From the NCBI GenBank assembly GCA_964527785.1, contig CAZGNO010000004.1, positions 14,364 to 78,363 on the forward strand: DNA of 64,000 bases, read 5' to 3'. Position numbers and translations under genes: made by a program. Origin of the DNA: an uncultured Chitinophagaceae bacterium. Its GTDB lineage: Bacteria > Bacteroidota > Ignavibacteria > Kapaibacteriales > UBA961. Under the pieces are notes generated by a model that searched no databases, was not told the DNA's origin, and saw nothing but the letters and a program-made list of their open reading frames with translations. This document shows positions 1,067 through 42,302 of the stretch, one piece after another. Numbering within the stretch: position 1 is the first letter of the stretch; each line of letters begins with the position of its first letter.

Positions 1067-2908
1067 ATGAGTAGTCAAACTCGCCCCGATATTCGGAATA
1101 TCGCTATCATTGCCCACGTGGATCACGGCAAAACCACCCTTGTTGACCATCTTTTACGCCAATCAGGTACATTTCGTGAAAACCAAGTTGTTGCCGAACG
1201 CATTATGGATTCAAACGACCTTGAACGTGAAAAAGGCATTACAATCATGGCTAAAAATGCCTCCGTTCATTGGAAAGGCACAAAAATTAATATCGTTGAT
1301 ACTCCCGGTCACTCTGATTTTGGTGGTGAAGTTGAGCGTATTTTGAGTATGGTAAGCGGCGTGTTGCTGCTTGTGGATGCTGCCGAAGGACCACTTCCAC
1401 AAACCCGTTTCGTTCTCAAGAAAGCATTGGAATTACACCTCGTTCCAATCGTTGTTATCAATAAAATTGACCGTTCGGATGCCAGACCGGAAGAAGTATT
1501 GGATGAAATTCTTGATCTTTTTATCGCTTTAGGCGCAGACTACGACCAATTGCACTTTCCTGTGATTTATGCGATTTCAAAACAAGGGATTGCAAGACGT
1601 TCACTAGTTGATGATTCAATGACGCTTGCCCCTCTGTTTGAAACAATTATAGATACGATACCCGGTCCGAAATATGATATTGACAGTCCGTTCCAAATGA
1701 TCATTACTGCTCTCGGTTGGAGTGATTATGTTGGGCGTATTGCGATAGGTCGTATTCACTCAGGAAAAGTTCAAGTAGGTGATTCTGTTGCGCTCATTCA
1801 CCTCGACGGCTCGAAAGAGCAGCAAAAAATCACAAAGATGTATTCGTATGAAGGTGTAAATCAAATGCCAATCGAAAACGCGGAGTCAGGTGAGATTATC
1901 GCTCTTTCCGGTTTTGAGAATGTCTATATCAGCGAAACCATTTGCGATGCTACCAATCCCGTTGCACTTCCGTATGTAAATATCGAAGAGCCGACGATTG
2001 CAATGTATTTCTGCGTCAATACTTCGCCCTTCGCCGGACGTGAAGGCAAGCACGTAACTACACCGAAACTCCGTGACCGTCTCTACCGCGAACTTCGTAT
2101 GAACGTTGCCTTGCGTGTGGAAGATACAGACCAAGCCGATGTATTCAAAGTATCCGGTCGTGGTGAGTTGCAGCTAGCAATTCTTATCGAAACGATGCGC
2201 CGTGAGGGTTATGAATTTGCGGTGTCAAAACCGGAAGTTCTTATGAAACGTGACGAAAACGGTACGCTTGTAGAGCCAATCGAGCACGTACTTGTAGATG
2301 TTCCTGATAAGCACGTTGGGACTGTTATCGAAATACTTGGACGACGCAGAGGAGAAATGGTAAACATGACACCGCAAGGTGACATTATCCGTGCAGAGTT
2401 TTATGTTCCGGCTCGCGGATTAATCGGTTTCCGTACAGAGTTCCTAACTTCTACTCGCGGTGAAGGAATCATCCACCATACTTTCCATGATTTCTCACCG
2501 TATAAGGGTGTTATCAGCGGACGTACAAAGGGCTCGATGGTTTCGATGGAAAACGGAACGGCAACAGGATATTCACTCGAAAGCGTGCAAGAACGCGGCA
2601 TTCTATTCATTGATCCGGGTATGGAAATTTACGAAGGAATGGTTGTAGGTGAAAATGCCCGCGAAGAGGATATTCAGGTAAATCCATGTAGAGCAAAACA
2701 TCTTACAAATATGCGTGCTTCGGGTTCTGACGGTATTATTAAATTGGAAACACCGCGTAAAATGAGCTTGGAGCAATATATCGAATTTATCGAAGATGAC
2801 GAACTATTGGAAGTTTCTCCGGTTTCAATTCGAGTCCGCAAGAAAATCCTTGATACGAACCTTCGCCTTCGTGCTCAGAAGAAACAAAAAGCACTTGATG
2901 AAGTTTGA
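1067..2908 (+). CDS. typA: Translational GTPase TypA/BipA
   Basis: N-terminal G-domain AIIAHVDHGKTTLVD, DTPGHSDF and NKIDR motifs, about 610 aa, and the EF-G-like domain order characteristic of BipA. Confidence 0.95.
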   Translation: MSSQTRPDIRNIAIIAHVDHGKTTLVDHLLRQSGTFRENQVVAERIMDSNDLEREKGITIMAKNASVHWKGTKINIVDTPGHSDFGGEVERILSMVSGVLLLVDAAEGPLPQTRFVLKKALELHLVPIVVINKIDRSDARPEEVLDEILDLFIALGADYDQLHFPVIYAISKQGIARRSLVDDSMTLAPLFETIIDTIPGPKYDIDSPFQMIITALGWSDYVGRIAIGRIHSGKVQVGDSVALIHLDGSKEQQKITKMYSYEGVNQMPIENAESGEIIALSGFENVYISETICDATNPVALPYVNIEEPTIAMYFCVNTSPFAGREGKHVTTPKLRDRLYRELRMNVALRVEDTDQADVFKVSGRGELQLAILIETMRREGYEFAVSKPEVLMKRDENGTLVEPIEHVLVDVPDKHVGTVIEILGRRRGEMVNMTPQGDIIRAEFYVPARGLIGFRTEFLTSTRGEGIIHHTFHDFSPYKGVISGRTKGSMVSMENGTATGYSLESVQERGILFIDPGMEIYEGMVVGENAREEDIQVNPCRAKHLTNMRASGSDGIIKLETPRKMSLEQYIEFIEDDELLEVSPVSIRVRKKILDTNLRLRAQKKQKALDEV

Positions 2909-2937
2909 TGTGTTTTGAGTGTTTGTGAAATGAGAAT

Positions 2938-2974
2938 GGACGGTAACATTAGATTGTTGCCGTCCGTTTTTTTA
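2938..2974 (+). terminator. Rho-independent terminator of typA
   Basis: Hairpin ggacggtaaca-ttagat-tgttgccgtcc (one G-U pair) followed by gttttttta, directly after the typA stop codon. Confidence 0.75.
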
Positions 2975-3004
2975 TCTAATCTCCTCTGCATCTTTGAATT
3001 TATT

Positions 3005-3205
3005 TTTTAACGCAAAGTGCGCAAAGGTTCGCAAATGGAACGCAAAGGTTTTCAGCTCCGGTAGAAGCGGCATAGAAATAGTATAGGCACACAACCAAAA
3101 CGTCAAGCTCCCGTAGGAGCGGCATAGCAATAGAATATGTATCAACCCATAATTCAAACTCCATTGGAGCGATATATTCTTAATGTCGTTCCGATGGAGC
3201 TTAGT
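3005..3205. repeat. Degenerate tandem repeat array with a period of about 52 bp, preceded by a 4x cgcaaagg micro-repeat
   Basis: The units agctccggtagaagcggcatagaaatag... (3055-3106) and agctcccgtaggagcggcatagcaatag... (3107-3158) share about 25 of 28 positions at their 5' ends and then diverge. A third, decayed unit contains ctccattggag. Each unit carries a small gctccNNNNggagc-type palindrome. Confidence 0.55.
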
Positions 3206-3310
3206 TGTTTTCTGGTTTTTTATTTCTATTACTATCAGTCCACTATGGGGAAATTGAAAGAAATATTGTTTCTAAATCAAATTATGCTGAATATGCAGTA
3301 ATCCAATCTA

Positions 3311-3892
3311 TCATCTGGTATGCTTGCTATACCTATACATTATAGACATTTTAGAGACATATTCCCTTAAATATGCAATATTTGCAAGTTGCGAACCTTG
3401 GCTTTCGAACTGAAGAGTCAAGTAACAATCTACTGCTGCCGGCTTATCGCCAAACACTTGTTTCAGTCCTGCTTCAGTGCCTCCGTTATAGGTTTTACCG
3501 GCATTATACAAGGTTACCTGTGCTGAAGGAAAAAGTGCACTCCAGTTTACCTCTCCACTTACTTTAAGCGATGGTGGAGGATCCTTTGTAAGGAGAGCAA
3601 AAAAATCTACTTTTAAATGTTCTTTGGTGCAAATATTCGCTTGAGTTTGATATATAATGAACCTGATTGTATCTCCGTAATCTTGGTAAAAAACTGTATT
3701 TCCTGCAGGAAGGGGGTAGTTTGCCTTTTCAATCTCTATCCCACCATCTAACGTAATTTTATGTTCAACATATTCTGTTCCTGCATCACAAGCACCGTCA
3801 CTCAATTCATAATCATCCGGATTGTCACATGAGGCAAGCCCCATAATTACTGAACATATAATCAACAGACAGAATGTAGAAAATAACTTCAT
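3311..3892 (-). CDS. Hypothetical lipoprotein
   Basis: Signal peptide followed by a lipobox (..MGLASC|DNP). No recognisable catalytic motif. Confidence 0.55.
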   Translation of the reverse strand: MKLFSTFCLLIICSVIMGLASCDNPDDYELSDGACDAGTEYVEHKITLDGGIEIEKANYPLPAGNTVFYQDYGDTIRFIIYQTQANICTKEHLKVDFFALLTKDPPPSLKVSGEVNWSALFPSAQVTLYNAGKTYNGGTEAGLKQVFGDKPAAVDCYLTLQFESQGSQLANIAYLREYVSKMSIMYRYSKHTR

Positions 3893-4063
3893 CGAAAACC
3901 TCCGTTTTGTAAATGAATTGATAATTTAAGACTATCTTTATTTACGATTTAATCTAACCATACATATAGCATTGATATTATAAAAACAATATTACAATTT
4001 TTCTTGAAGCTTTCCAAGTTAATTACAACTACATAAGAAGTATATTTCATGGAACCTTACCTC

Positions 4064-36871: not shown

Positions 36872-36892
36872 TTTTGTTATTAAAAGTTCATA

Positions 36893-37678
36893 GACCTTGA
36901 AGGTTTTCGAAAACCTTCAAGGTCTTAAATTCTCACATACAACTATCTATTCAGATTATTCAAAAATACCATTCATTTGAAAATTCTCTTATATCAATTG
37001 GCTGTTGATGAAATTCTCTAAATAACCGTTCACCTCCAAACCATGTCAGTACTTTATTACGTTCTATTTTAGTATCTTTTGTTGAACATAAAGTCTGATA
37101 TGAAGAGAACCTCCAATCATTTATATTATCAACGAACCCGTGATGAACAGGATTAGAGTGAATGTAATGTATCAATTTAGTAAAATAGTTAATATTGTTT
37201 ACTGGTTTACGTTTAATATTGGTGCGAAATACTGCTCCTTTTCGAGCAAACATTTTATTATACGCTTTAGCGTATGCATTTAAAAAGTTACTGAACTGCT
37301 GATTTACCCTTTTATTTACGATATCACTTACTGTATAGAGGTTCTCAAAATCAAGAGAATTTTTTGTGTTATTCTTGAAAAACTCAATAAGTTCACCCTC
37401 TGATTTAATATAAACCAAGAAATGAAAATGATTAGGCATTAAACAATAAGAATATGTATCTAAAATAGGAGAAAGGTATTGTGAATACTTATGAAGGAAG
37501 TATAAATAATTATCTTCTGTCCTAAAAAGATTTTCATCACCGTTTGCATGGTTATATAGGTGATAGTATGTGTCCGGTAAGAAAGGAGTTTTGGCTTCCA
37601 TATCAAAACGTATAATGTCATAAATTATATTTTAAAACAATCCTAAACCTTGAAGGTTTTCGAAAACCTTCAAGGTTT
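36893..37678. mobile_element. REPtron-like unit: a HUH/Y1 (IS200-like) transposase gene flanked by two copies of a perfect palindrome
   Basis: The left palindrome gaccttgaaggttttcgaaaaccttcaaggtc lies at 36893-36924 and the right palindrome aaaccttgaaggttttcgaaaaccttcaaggttt at 37645-37678. They share an identical 30-bp core. Confidence 0.65.
36960..37601 (-). CDS. IS200-like / REP-associated tyrosine (Y1, HUH) transposase
   Basis: HUH motif YCLMPNHFHFLV, the N-terminal motif YHLYNHANGDENLF and the catalytic Tyr region IHYIHSNPVHHGFV, 213 aa. Confidence 0.75.
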   Translation of the reverse strand: MEAKTPFLPDTYYHLYNHANGDENLFRTEDNYLYFLHKYSQYLSPILDTYSYCLMPNHFHFLVYIKSEGELIEFFKNNTKNSLDFENLYTVSDIVNKRVNQQFSNFLNAYAKAYNKMFARKGAVFRTNIKRKPVNNINYFTKLIHYIHSNPVHHGFVDNINDWRFSSYQTLCSTKDTKIERNKVLTWFGGERLFREFHQQPIDIREFSNEWYF

Positions 37679-37702
37679 GAGGAATTTCTAAAAAATAAAG
37701 AA

Positions 37703-38285: not shown

Positions 38286-38945
38286 CTACATTTTTTCGTC
38301 AGAAGAAGCCGCCTCGCCTACTATTTTACCAAGAATTTCCTTGATAATATCCCACGAAAAGCCCTGGCGTTGCAAGTAGCCGATGAGTGCGGTTTTCTGT
38401 TTCTCGAGCGGTTTATGCTGCACGGAACGAAGTTTCTTTTCGGCGGCTTTGAGGGCAAGTTCGGTCGTATCGTCTTTGGGGAAAAATTGGTGGATTGCTT
38501 CTTGAGCTTGAAGTTCAGGTATGCCACGTTTGCGGAGCTCCATTTTTACCCGGCTAGCCGACGACGGCTTTCTTAGCAAAAAGTCCTTAACGAACATTCT
38601 GGCATATTCAGTATCATTCAGATAATCGAATTCTTTGAGATATTGAATTGCGGTATCTTGCTCATAGATTGATGCTCCGAATTCCTGCAATTTACGTCGA
38701 ACCTGAAATTCCGTTCGGGGTTTGTAGCTTGCAAATGCTACTGCACGCTGCTTTACATCAATGATATGTTGACGGGCAAGTATAGTTTTTTTCAGTTCGT
38801 CCGTGAGAAGTACTCCCTTTCCCAATTTGAATTCCAATACCAAATCCATCGAGCATTCGAGGGCAATGTCATCACCCGCAAAAACTATGCACAGCGGCTT
38901 TCGCCGACGTTTTAGGATTCGGGTAATTAGTAGTGGCTCAGGCAT
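38286..38945 (-). CDS. recX: Regulatory protein RecX
   Basis: Three-repeat helical RecX architecture (..ALKAAEKKLRS.., ..ALIGYLQRQGFSWDIIKEIL) immediately downstream of recA on the same strand. Confidence 0.7.
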   Translation of the reverse strand: MPEPLLITRILKRRRKPLCIVFAGDDIALECSMDLVLEFKLGKGVLLTDELKKTILARQHIIDVKQRAVAFASYKPRTEFQVRRKLQEFGASIYEQDTAIQYLKEFDYLNDTEYARMFVKDFLLRKPSSASRVKMELRKRGIPELQAQEAIHQFFPKDDTTELALKAAEKKLRSVQHKPLEKQKTALIGYLQRQGFSWDIIKEILGKIVGEAASSDEKM

Positions 38946-39007
38946 AATCGTGTTAATAAAAATTGCATATGACAATTTTTTGTATGTGTGGTTTTAATCC
39001 CCTCGTT

Positions 39008-39235
39008 CCCCTTTATCAAGCAGGGTTGTTTTTCTACATCTCAAAAAAATTTTTCTCTAATTCCCCTCTTGAGAGAGGCAGGCGTGTGAATCAAACACTA
39101 TGCCTTGATTAAAGAAAACGGTACATATACCCCGCTTGACCACACACCCCTACCCCTCTCGAAGAGGGGAATTAGGACTTATATTCTGTTTTTTTCAATT
39201 GAACCAGAACTTAACAGCCCTGCTTTATCAAGGGG
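39008..39235. repeat. Nested imperfect inverted-repeat element of about 230 bp (MITE-like or long structured spacer) between recA and recX
   Basis: Outer arms cccctttatcaagcagggttgtt (39008-39030) and aacagccctgctttatcaagggg (39213-35). Inner arms ctaattcccctcttgagagagg (39055-78) and cccctctcgaagaggggaattag (39149-73). A palindromic centre (gcgtgtgaatcaa ... ttgaccacacacc) lies between them. Confidence 0.6.
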
Positions 39236-39257
39236 ATGACGTACACATTTGCTGCTA

Positions 39258-39291
39258 TAAAAAAATCTCACGACTTTGTTGCCGTGAGATT
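39258..39291 (-). terminator. Rho-independent terminator of recA
   Basis: aatctcacg-actttgttgc-cgtgagatt with aaaaaaa immediately upstream on the + strand, which is a U-tract on the - strand. It lies 12 nt downstream of the recA stop codon. Confidence 0.75.
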
Positions 39292-39302
39292 ATTGAATCA
39301 GC

Positions 39303-40367
39303 TTATTTTTTAGATGGTTTTTCTGCCGACGGTTCGGGAGTGGTAGTAATATTCAGTACTTTCTTCACATCGTTTTCGAGTGCTGTGAACATTGCCGGAG
39401 AATCAATGAGTTGCCTGCGCAGACCATCACGACCTTGAACTCTGTCTTCTTTGTATGTCAGCCACGAACCGCTTTTTTGGACGATTCCATGCTCAATCGC
39501 CACATCAAGCATATCACCTACTTTAGAAATACCTTCATTGTACATAATATCAAATTCGGTTTCTCTGAACGGCGGGGCTACTTTATTCTTTACTATTTTC
39601 ACTTTCACTCTGTTACCTACAATATCCGCACCTTCTTTAATAGCATCTTTTCGGCGAATATCAATCCGCACCGAGGCGTAATATTTCAGAGCATTACCAC
39701 CTGTGGTCGTTTCAGGATTACCATACACGACACCAATTTTGCTCCGAAGTTGATTTGTAAAAATAACGCACGTATTCGAGCGTCCGATTGCCGCATTGAG
39801 CTTACGCATACCCTGTGACATAAGCCGCGCCTGCGAACCCATCTGAGCGTCGCCCATATCACCCTCGATTTCTGCACGCGGAGTAAGTGCAGCTACCGAG
39901 TCAATAACAACCACATCAATCGCATTGCTTCGTACAAGTGTTTCCACTATTTCAAGTGCTTGCTCGCCGAATTCCGGCTGAGAAAGAAGCAAATTATTCA
40001 AATCAACACCTAAACGCTGTGCATATTGAACGTCAAGCGCATGCTCTGTATCCACGAAAGCAGCCAATCCGCCATTTTTTTGTGCATTTGCAATAATATG
40101 TAAGCAGACTGTCGTTTTACCGGATGATTCCGGTCCGTATATTTCAATAATCCTGCCTTTTGGCACACCGCCGATACCTAAAATCGCATCAAAAGAAAGA
40201 GAGCCCGTCGAAATTGAATCTATCGCAATCACATTTTGGTCGGAAAGGCGCATAATCGAGCCCTTGCCATATTGCTTTTCGATTTGCTCCATAGCATTTT
40301 CAGCAGCTTTCATTTTAGCATCACTGACTTTCATCGAATTGGTTTTTACGTCGTTAGACATACTCAT
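39303..40367 (-). CDS. recA: Recombinase RecA
   Basis: Walker A motif GPESSGKTT and the motif [14 protein letters not shown]. The protein is near-full-length (354 aa) and canonical. Confidence 0.97.
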
Positions 40368-40524
40368 TGTTCCCTAAAGATTTGAAAAATAAAAGAATAA
40401 CTTTATGTAACTGTTCTAATTTACTATTTTATCAGCGCAGACCAATCAAAAATTCCGTTTCTTAATTTCTACTCGTTCGTCATTCAAAAAAATCTCGTAT
40501 ATTTGCCGTATCAGATAATTGTAT

Positions 40525-40697
40525 GGTGCTTTTGCCCGTGTCCAAACGGCAAAAGAGAATAGGGAATCCTGTGAAAATCGGGAACGGTTGCGCCGCTGTA
40601 ACGGATGACGCGCTCTTTTACCCCAAAAGCCACTGCCAAAAGGCGGGAAGGCACAAAATAAAAGAGCAAGGATGATTCCGAAGTCAGAAGACCTGCC
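40525..40697 (+). ncRNA. Cobalamin (B12) riboswitch
   Basis: + strand: GGTGC..AAGAGAATAGGGAATCCTGTGAAAATCGGGAACGGTTGCGCCGCTGTAACGG...GCCACTG..GGGAAGGC...AAGTCAGAAGACCTGCC. This matches the conserved AAnAGGGAA, GGTGAAAnTCC, CCGC.CTGTAA, GCCACTG, GGGAAGG and B12-box AGYCAGGAGACCTGCC blocks in the correct order. The listed ORFs 40446..40751(-) and 40511..40702(-) are rejected. Confidence 0.8.
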
Positions 40698-40940
40698 TGC
40701 AATTCTCATCGTTCTATCGCCTGTGTTCAATAGTGAATACAGTATAGACATCCGCGCAAACGGATGTGTGATGAGGAAATGTGTTTTTTATCGCACCCAA
40801 AGTGTGACTTCCTTTCTGCATTTCCCCATCGTTGCGTCTTAACTCTCGGCGCATTTGCTTTATCATATTACAAAAATACAAGCAATGACTGACAACAGTA
40901 TGTCAGTTACTTTTTTTATTTTCTTTTAAGGGAAATGTTT

Positions 40941-42302
40941 ATGAATTATTTTTCTTTGTTGCGGAAATTTACCGCTCTCACTTTCTTCATCGCAGGGCTA
41001 GCTTCCAACCTTTCAGCCCAATCAATTATTACTGTTGGCACACAGCCGCTTTCCATTATTCCCGCAGGGAACACCGTTCATATATTTTGCAACGGCGACG
41101 ACAAGAATTACAATTCTATTTATGAGCCGGACAGCGGAGAAGTTGCGGCTTCATGGTGGATTCTTGATGCACAAACTCAAACAGTTCTCAAACACCGTGA
41201 ATTTACCGATAGATACCTCCCTTTTCCTCTACGAGTGGGAATTGGGTATGATACACTCTATATGGGCACAGGCAACCGCGTCAGTACCTTCAATGTCAAT
41301 ACCCAAGAAATGATACAGGATAAATATATTGTTCTTCCTGATTCTCTTGGCTTTATTCATGCAATTACGGCAGAAGAATTGGATGATGCTCATCAAGTTG
41401 GTGTAGCTATTTCTTGTATAAAAGATTATACAAATCCGGGATATTTAGCAGCATCAATAAATGGAGAAATTCTACTGGTTCTGAATACCCTCATCTCTCC
41501 TCAACAGGCAATTACCTACATTAGCCCTATTGATAGCAACGGAGCTGTGGCTGTTCTCTGCGAAGGAACGTATGGCGTAGGAAACTCTTACCTTCAACTC
41601 TTTGTTAAACAAGACAGTGCAGCAGTTAATATTTCAGTAGGAGATGGTGGCAATCATATTTTCTATGAAGGCACAGGGCATGATTCAATGTATGTTACGT
41701 CTAACGGCACACACAAGGTTTTGATTGTGGATTTGAAAAAATTAAGTGCCGTTAAATCCATCTCAGTAGGTACTACAGGTTTTAATGGTCCCCGTGAATC
41801 AGCCCTCATTGGAAACAAACTTTTTGTTACAACATACGATAGTGATGTAAGAGAATTTAATATCGAAACGGGTGAGTTGGTTGCAACTCTGGACTCCAAA
41901 GGGAAACCCGAAGGGCTAACCGTAATAAACGGTAAATTGTGGGTAGCAAATGCTTATAAAAGTAAAAGCTATGAAGCAGGAAATACTATTGCTGTTTTCG
42001 ATTCCCCTCTTGCAGTAGAAGAATATTTTACTGAGAATAAAAATATAGTATTCCCAAATCCAGCGCAATCTTCTACAACAATCTCCACTACATTCAGCGG
42101 GCAAGCAAATATACCCGTTCAAGTAGAAGTGTATTCATTGACCGGTACGAAATTACTTTCAGTGAATACTGTAACCGGAAATAATGGTGAAGTAAATTAC
42201 ACACTTCCGATTCAAGAGTATAATCTGACTTCCGGTACGTATTTTATCCGCCTTTCGGCAGGACATAAAGTGCAGACTTCGCGGCTGACAGTTGTGGAAT
42301 AA
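40941..42302 (+). CDS. Secreted YVTN/YncE-type beta-propeller protein with a T9SS (Por) C-terminal sorting domain
   Basis: Signal peptide (..LSAQ|S) and repeated ..VG..P..I......(K)(L)(Y/F)V(T/A)N.. beta-propeller blades. The last ~80 aa (..FPNPAQSSTTISTT......VYSLTGTKLLSVN........SGTYFIRLSAGHKVQTSRLTVVE) match a T9SS C-terminal domain. The gene lies downstream of the B12 riboswitch on the same strand. Confidence 0.65.
   Translation: MNYFSLLRKFTALTFFIAGLASNLSAQSIITVGTQPLSIIPAGNTVHIFCNGDDKNYNSIYEPDSGEVAASWWILDAQTQTVLKHREFTDRYLPFPLRVGIGYDTLYMGTGNRVSTFNVNTQEMIQDKYIVLPDSLGFIHAITAEELDDAHQVGVAISCIKDYTNPGYLAASINGEILLVLNTLISPQQAITYISPIDSNGAVAVLCEGTYGVGNSYLQLFVKQDSAAVNISVGDGGNHIFYEGTGHDSMYVTSNGTHKVLIVDLKKLSAVKSISVGTTGFNGPRESALIGNKLFVTTYDSDVREFNIETGELVATLDSKGKPEGLTVINGKLWVANAYKSKSYEAGNTIAVFDSPLAVEEYFTENKNIVFPNPAQSSTTISTTFSGQANIPVQVEVYSLTGTKLLSVNTVTGNNGEVNYTLPIQEYNLTSGTYFIRLSAGHKVQTSRLTVVE

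Follow-up and report, generated by a model that had tools for sequence, protein, structure and literature searches.

A MITE-like unit with a REPIN-like core forms the long hairpin just after the recA terminator in a recA-recX spacer

The window, which is the whole 64,000-nucleotide stretch of DNA analyzed here, carries recA and recX side by side on its minus strand, the strand from which both genes are read. Table 1 presents the features of the locus. The spacer between the two genes measures 357 nt, based on the recX ATG start used by public gene calls and by homologues, where the MPE... start is common to homologues at 77-92% identity. Moving from recA toward recX, the spacer holds the intrinsic terminator of recA and then, approximately 27 nt away, the outer arm of a separate and longer hairpin. 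Upstream of recA, a cobalamin riboswitch (40506-40714, plus strand; Rfam RF00174, 90.5 bits) precedes a gene at 40935-42302 that is divergent from recA and encodes a protein of 455 aa bearing a type IX secretion sorting tail; this arrangement is also present in the relative L138 (2193-2404).

Table 1 Features of the recA-recX locus in the window. TIRs, terminal inverted repeats; U, small palindrome described in the text.
Feature	Position	Strand	Description	Basis
recX	38286..38945	-	CDS, 219 aa	three RecX Pfam domains
recX-side half of U and tail	38991..39020	-	CTTGATAAAG-GGGA-ACGAG-GGGATTAAAAC	repeat search, L145 comparison
Duplication, copy 1	39011..39020		within recX-side half of U	repeat search
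MITE-like non-coding element, 202 nt	39021..39222	.		TIRs, duplication, empty site
TIRs of the element	39021..39030 and 39213..39222		CAGGGTTGTT / AACAGCCCTG	
Inner core hairpin	39057..39175	.	inverted arms 39057-39088 and 39143-39175	repeat search, motif comparison, arm profile
Small apical palindrome	39119..39130	.	GGTACATATACC; part of the core's variable loop	sequence and fold
Duplication, copy 2	39223..39232		within recA-side half of U	repeat search
recA-side half of U and conserved upstream flank	39223..39243	-	TACGTCA-TCCC-CTTGATAAAG	direct repeat 100% identical
recA intrinsic terminator	39257..39291	-	11-bp stem (39264-39291) and T-run	terminator scan
recA	39303..40367	-	CDS, 354 aa	ORF list; exact protein on record with RecA Pfam domains

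Both a repeat search and folding confirm that a nested long inverted repeat occupies the spacer, as a sequence-only reading of this DNA had described with arm coordinates correct to 1-2 nt. The outer arms (39007-39030 and 39213-39236) are 24 nt long and 88% complementary. The inner arms (39057-39070 and 39162-39175) are complementary at all 14 nt, and extend to approximately 39057-39088 and 39143-39175 when mismatches are allowed. The palindromic center placed between them by that reading corresponds to the apical palindrome GGTACATATACC. Folding on both strands, proposed at the same time for 39000-39300, was carried out on 38976-39302 and returns structures far more stable than shuffles in each case. 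The minus-strand RNA folds at -132.4 kcal/mol versus -76.5 +/- 5.0 kcal/mol for shuffled sequences (z = -11.3), where 0 of 100 shuffles matched its energy, and the plus-strand RNA folds at -106 kcal/mol (z = -8.8). Searches of the hairpin region against Rfam returned only sub-threshold matches to microRNA precursors, as would any generic hairpin, and Rfam 15 gave nothing at gathering score in the window and 15 loci of the repeat family described below except tRNAs and cobalamin riboswitches.

The better fold of the sense strand, together with the position of the hairpin between two co-oriented genes whose ratio matters, would speak for a regulatory RNA in the recA-recX transcript, i.e. an attenuator, processing site or stabilizer setting recX dosage. 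The hairpin at 39007-39236 also contains 11 G-U pairs on the recA/recX sense strand, each of which is an A-C mismatch on the other strand, versus two in the plus strand's own best fold. Such an excess could arise from selection on RNA structure or from a transcription-linked C-to-T bias on the non-template strand.

RecA and RecX assign the window, part of ENA contig k119_183824, to Kapaibacteria-like bacteria in the Ignavibacteria/Bacteroidota group. Comparison with recX loci from relatives at 77-92% RecX identity bears directly on a regulatory role. The spacer is 56 nt long in L139, L143 and L140, where L140 is the closest relative (92% RecX), 126 nt in L132, 134 nt in L136, approximately 230 nt in L145 and 392 nt in L138. 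Among the seven related lineages with recA still adjacent to recX, five have spacers of 56-134 nt, and the window spacer is indeed far longer than usual, as had been claimed for it. Inspection of the 56-nt spacers reveals the recA terminator and nothing more. The terminator hairpin (AATCTCACGG...CCGTGAGATTTTTTT) is present in L132, L136, L138, L139, L143 and L145 and in variant form in L140, and is kept in every related lineage with sequence reaching recA. The long hairpin, on the other hand, is absent from L140, L139, L143, L132 and L136 and rearranged in L138. Because the terminator is kept everywhere and the 56-nt spacers are otherwise empty, the long hairpin is no conserved part of the recA-recX unit; of the structures in these spacers, only the terminator hairpin is conserved. 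In one further relative (L141, RecX 77%), uvrD rather than recA precedes recX, and the 1.4 kb after uvrD hold no convincing gene (2537-4000), which indicates that the recA-recX linkage is broken there. Long recA-recX spacers from distant phyla (L006, L040 and L069) were considered as well and are unrelated in sequence to that of the window.

The sequence-only reading had offered two interpretations of the hairpin, an elaborated attenuator or a MITE inserted in the spacer, and the first of these is not supported. No U-tract follows the long hairpin, it is absent from L140 and most other relatives, and the terminator upstream of it is conserved. The same observations make a regulatory RNA of any kind unlikely, despite its better sense-strand fold, given that the borders of the hairpin bear insertion scars, a duplication and terminal repeats and that its G-U excess can also be explained by C-to-T change. 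The second interpretation is supported by terminal inverted repeats (TIRs), a perfect 10-nt duplication, an empty site, and presence or absence of the element among close relatives.

This evidence centers on a small palindrome, U (TCCCCTT-TATC-AAGGGGA), that lies upstream of recX in the clade and reads TCCCCTTGATAAAGGGGA followed by N5-GGGGATT on the minus strand. In the window, U is split by a 202-nt element that has no coding capacity, with no stop-free run beyond approximately 50 aa in any frame. The element is bounded by TIRs that are complementary at 9 of 10 positions but are only 10 nt long. Abutting the TIRs is a target-site duplication, CTTTATCAAG, the two copies of which are identical at 10/10 positions. 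The minus strand of the window thus reads TACGTCA-TCCC-(CTTGATAAAG) CAGGGCTGTT ... AACAACCCTG (CTTGATAAAG)-GGGA-ACGAG-GGGATTAAAAC, where the 10-mers in parentheses constitute the direct repeat. Three relatives (L145, L144 and L146, RecX ~85%) provide the empty site, ...TTACGTCATCCCCTTGTTAAAGGGGACTGAGGGGATTTAAC..., with the palindrome intact and the same flanks on both sides (TTACGTCA-TCCCCTTGTTAAAGGGGA-CTGAG-GGGATTTAAC). The recA-side flank of the window (TACGTCATCCCCTTG) agrees with the L145 empty site, and the segment at 38991-39020 is conserved in both L138 and L145. In silico excision of 39021-39232 generates ...GTACGTCATCCCCTTGATAAAGGGGAACGAGGGGATTAAAAC..., which aligns with L145 across the junction.

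Terminal repeats, target-site duplication and empty site together form the classical signature of a transposed element. As read from these sequences, the 202-nt unit was inserted into the loop and 3' stem of U, duplicating 10 nt of its target. Insertion into U also accounts for the outer arms, which consist of the two U halves, the duplication and the TIRs of the element. The inner arms form a palindromic core within the element. The long hairpin is probably what remains of non-coding repeat DNA inserted, in nested fashion, immediately 3' of the recA terminator.

The history of the element was examined against the RecX tree, ((window, L140), (L138, (L144, L145))). L138 displays the same recX-side junction as the window (AATAGCCCTG / CTTGTTAAAAGGGA) along with a homologous core arm and loop start, while the element has lost its recA-side end and the spacer has gained three solo hairpins in tandem. 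Together, the tree and the L138 junction place the element in two non-sister lineages and show it to be absent from their sisters. Either one insertion followed by precise loss or two insertions at the same site would produce this pattern, and both imply mobility or instability rather than conserved function. The site just 3' of the recA terminator collects insertions in the clade of the window. In L138, a 32-nt unit (AGTAATTCCTCTCTTCGAGAGAGATATTTGAA) is repeated three times in tandem at 3780-3890, every repeat being a solo hairpin akin to the core arm, and a spurious 93-aa gene has been called across its recA-recX spacer.

Palindromic joins can arise in short-read assemblers, such that the hairpin might be suspected to be an assembly artifact. 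This explanation is exceedingly improbable given that the hairpin lies in the interior of a 91-kb contig found in two samples and that a diverged, homologous version is present in an independent NCBI MAG, L138. In a separate observation, the independent short-read contigs L144 and L146 both begin at the same base inside an inverted doublet of U-type palindromes, which suggests that inverted repeats upstream of recX may break assemblies.

Other copies of the inserted unit were sought at several levels. The search for further genomic copies, which the sequence-only reading had put forward as a check on a MITE, covered 81.5 kb of the source contig and revealed no second copy of the 202-nt element, its linkers or palindrome U. 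Approximately 1.2 Mb of related and family loci likewise contained no copy of the three, and a blastn search of a plasmid collection gave no match.

The ends of the element point to a candidate means of movement. We propose that the 202-nt element is non-autonomous and would have been moved in trans by a DDE transposase making a staggered cut of approximately 10 bp. The candidate parent enzyme would belong to the ISAs1 family, whose signature in ISfinder comprises CAGGG ends and an 8-10 bp duplication; the CAGGG ends and 10-nt duplication of the window element match these features. The yhhI/H-repeat element of E. coli K-12 (1291 bp) begins CAGGGAAAGAT... and ends ...ATCTTGCCCTG, i.e. CAGGG... 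and ...CCCTG. Duplications made by IS4-type elements are of similar length (9-12 bp), and an IS4-type enzyme is the alternative parent. A tblastn search with YhhI, covering the window and the related and family loci, detected no ISAs1 transposase; the final 17.5 kb of the source contig (L149, L150) were covered by the search for element DNA. Nor was any other DDE transposase, or a transposase gene sharing the ends of the element, found in the window and these loci.

The inner core extends beyond this locus. Each core arm is built from a local palindrome, AATT-CCCCTC-loop-GAGGGG, followed by GGGGTGTG. The pattern AATTCCCCTCTT-N76-106-AAGAGGGGAATT occurs in 50 metagenome stretches versus approximately 0.2 expected by our own estimate, where this breadth is limited by the query because the family was fished from metagenome contigs with the window's own 12-mers. 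Approximately 30 of the 50 stretches share the interior GAGGGG...GGGGTG...CACCCC...CCCCTC beyond the 12-mers. Arms of the family follow the order CCCCTC-loop-GAGGGG and then GGGGTG(G/T), and the interior closes with the mirror image. An arm profile built without the window matches both window arms (E = 5e-6 and 2e-4), which share 93-94% identity over 31-33 nt with a copy of Mucilaginibacter type (L129). Profile searches with the family arms also reveal extra full, half and tandem copies per contig, with eight arms in L100, seven in L130 and five in L093; several copies or half-copies per contig are also found in L113. Hosts include Mucilaginibacter, Parcubacteria/Patescibacteria and Brocadiaceae, as named by proteins at least 90% identical to those encoded on the contigs. 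Flanks vary by locus, with neighboring genes that range over unrelated housekeeping and sensor functions. Sequence comparison places the inner core in a dispersed family of palindromic repeats found in several phyla. A distinct 122-nt palindromic element with identical 12-nt tips, AATTCCCCTCTT...AAGAGGGGAATT, is present in L086, L089, L090 and approximately 20 other human-gut contigs; its interior (CACAGCAGG...) is unrelated to the core, and it is near-identical across contigs and present in both orientations.

Copies of the core in other genomes lack CAGGG repeats and show no consistent duplication, so the core and the 202-nt unit may move by different routes. The core family may spread by a route of its own, possibly one akin to that of REPINs. 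Under a rival reading, the whole structure would be a REPIN, i.e. two inverted REP palindromes copied through single-stranded DNA by a RAYT (an HUH tyrosine transposase) encoded 1.4 kb away. In favor of this reading, a small palindrome (CCCCTC-loop-GAGGGG) makes up each core arm, with one arm inverted relative to the other; moreover, the family occurs as doublets, solo units and clusters, like BIMEs, and its lack of a consistent target duplication in other genomes fits as well. A RAYT-like gene does lie 1.4 kb from the hairpin at 36960-37601 on the minus strand. Its match to NCBIfam NF047646 (E = 1e-12) scores 48 bits, below the curated cut-off of 80, and it also matches TnpA-REP in PDB 4er8 (E = 0.002). 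This gene is, however, flanked on both sides by a different, 34-nt perfect palindrome, ACCTTGAAGGTTTTCGAAAACCTTCAAGGT (36892-36925 and 37643-37680), and no RAYT-like gene is found in 31 family loci. With a palindrome of its own and no co-occurrence with the family in those loci, the RAYT-like gene was rejected as the mobilizer. The arms also begin with AATT, in contrast to the GTAG or CGTC tags found at the foot of the unit in described REP superfamilies (PMC3733652, PMC6006769), and the 202-nt unit of the window bears a 10-nt duplication; HUH transposition leaves no such duplication. A REPIN copied by this RAYT is consequently a rather doubtful account of the structure. The RAYT-like gene and its palindromes make up a unit (36892-37680) that none of the relatives examined carries at this position and that looks like a separate recent insertion.

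The basal stem of the family, approximately 20 bp long, hardly varies (AATTCCCCTCTTGAGGGGTG / CACCCCTCAAGAGGGGAATT). In the best-sampled subtype (L095, L101, L094, L120, L130, L084, L114 and L102, with Parcubacteria-like contigs among the hosts), this stem is invariant and the fold is a four-way junction with a conserved apical stem, GGGGTGGA...TCCACCCC. Its two side hairpins keep their pairing as sequences change, where three of the four pairs in one stem have changed on both sides. A four-way junction with such maintained pairing would fit a free-standing structured non-coding RNA gene that lies in the spacer by chance. Against this stand the lack of an Rfam family, the fragmented, tandem and nested state of the copies, and the decayed window copy, in which the side hairpins are missing. 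Orientation relative to neighboring genes is mixed, at 9 sense versus 5 antisense; as a bias these counts are not informative about an RNA role, while the mixture argues for a DNA-level element over an RNA gene. We consider a free-standing RNA gene at this locus very unlikely.

Searches of the literature, both for sequence strings and by subject, turned up no account of the core family, and its type-A pattern had no match in viral contigs. We tentatively raise the possibility that the core represents an undescribed cross-phylum family of 100-130 nt, being either a new non-autonomous element moved as single-stranded DNA or a structured RNA. Such a family may span Kapaibacteria, Mucilaginibacter, Brocadiaceae and Parcubacteria, and its conserved ends would, if this is true, point to one recognition protein shared across phyla.

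For recA-recX expression, the 202-nt element is most likely a passenger, because the conserved upstream terminator already limits read-through and the duplication left promoter-like sequence intact. The latter is a putative TTGATA-17 nt-TAAAAC in 38991-39020, next to recX, that is conserved in L138; a looser promoter-like TTGNNN-N18-TAAATT is present in L132 and L136. A sigma-70 scan of the spacer, which does not cover promoters of the Bacteroidota type, accepted none. A secondary effect of the element on read-through transcripts is possible. Such transcripts would carry a hairpin of approximately -100 kcal/mol, which could be cut by RNase III or could stabilize the RNA, as do other co-transcribed palindromic repeats. 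The recA terminator serves as the conserved control point of recA-recX. The long hairpin is baggage particular to the lineage and does not merit annotation as a regulator. As a mobile element rather than a conserved regulatory structure, it is an ordinary finding for recA-recX biology.

Taken together, the hairpin is a MITE-like unit with a REPIN-like core that was inserted into the small palindrome U, immediately 3' of the recA terminator. Its clean insertion scar, with terminal repeats, duplication and empty site, was recovered from metagenome-assembled genomes. Wider interest lies only in the cross-phylum core family, which may matter more than the hairpin itself given its near-identical ends in distant phyla and its absence from Rfam. 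The family could be traced to a mobilizing enzyme, and it gives rise to spurious calls of small genes and to breaks in assemblies.

Several known systems share some of these features. The Correia/NEMIS elements of Neisseria are bacterial MITEs that occur in hundreds of copies and duplicate TA. The window element resembles such MITEs in its size class of 100-200 bp, its lack of an open reading frame, its TIRs and target duplication, and its long hairpin, and also in being intergenic, co-transcribed with its neighbors and variably present between close strains. In contrast to them, it has a 10-nt duplication, CAGGG ends and no second copy in 81.5 kb. Its likeness to the ISAs1 family, represented by the E. 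coli H-repeat/yhhI, lies in ends that begin CAGGG and in a 10-nt duplication that fits the 8-10 bp of the family; end similarity stops at CAGGG, however, and neither a transposase gene nor a full-length copy was found.

REP, BIME and REPIN elements with their RAYT transposases (PMC3116915, PMC3733652, PMC6006769) are the comparison systems for the core. Like these, it forms larger hairpins from inverted doublets of short palindromes, occurs as solo units and clusters, and lies between genes, 3' of terminators; for REP-type elements, repeat dimers are also reported to have been inserted within other palindromes (PMC3733652). Unlike REPs and REPINs, the core carries no GTAG or CGTC tag, no cognate RAYT was found in the family loci, and the window unit has a duplication.

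The recA-recX terminator of E. coli offers a final comparison, with its true counterpart here being the conserved hairpin at 39264-39291 with its T-run. In E. coli, recX is co-transcribed with recA by read-through, and the terminator between the two genes limits how much read-through reaches recX. The 230-nt hairpin of the window differs from that terminator in being a separate, non-conserved insertion that lies downstream of the terminator.
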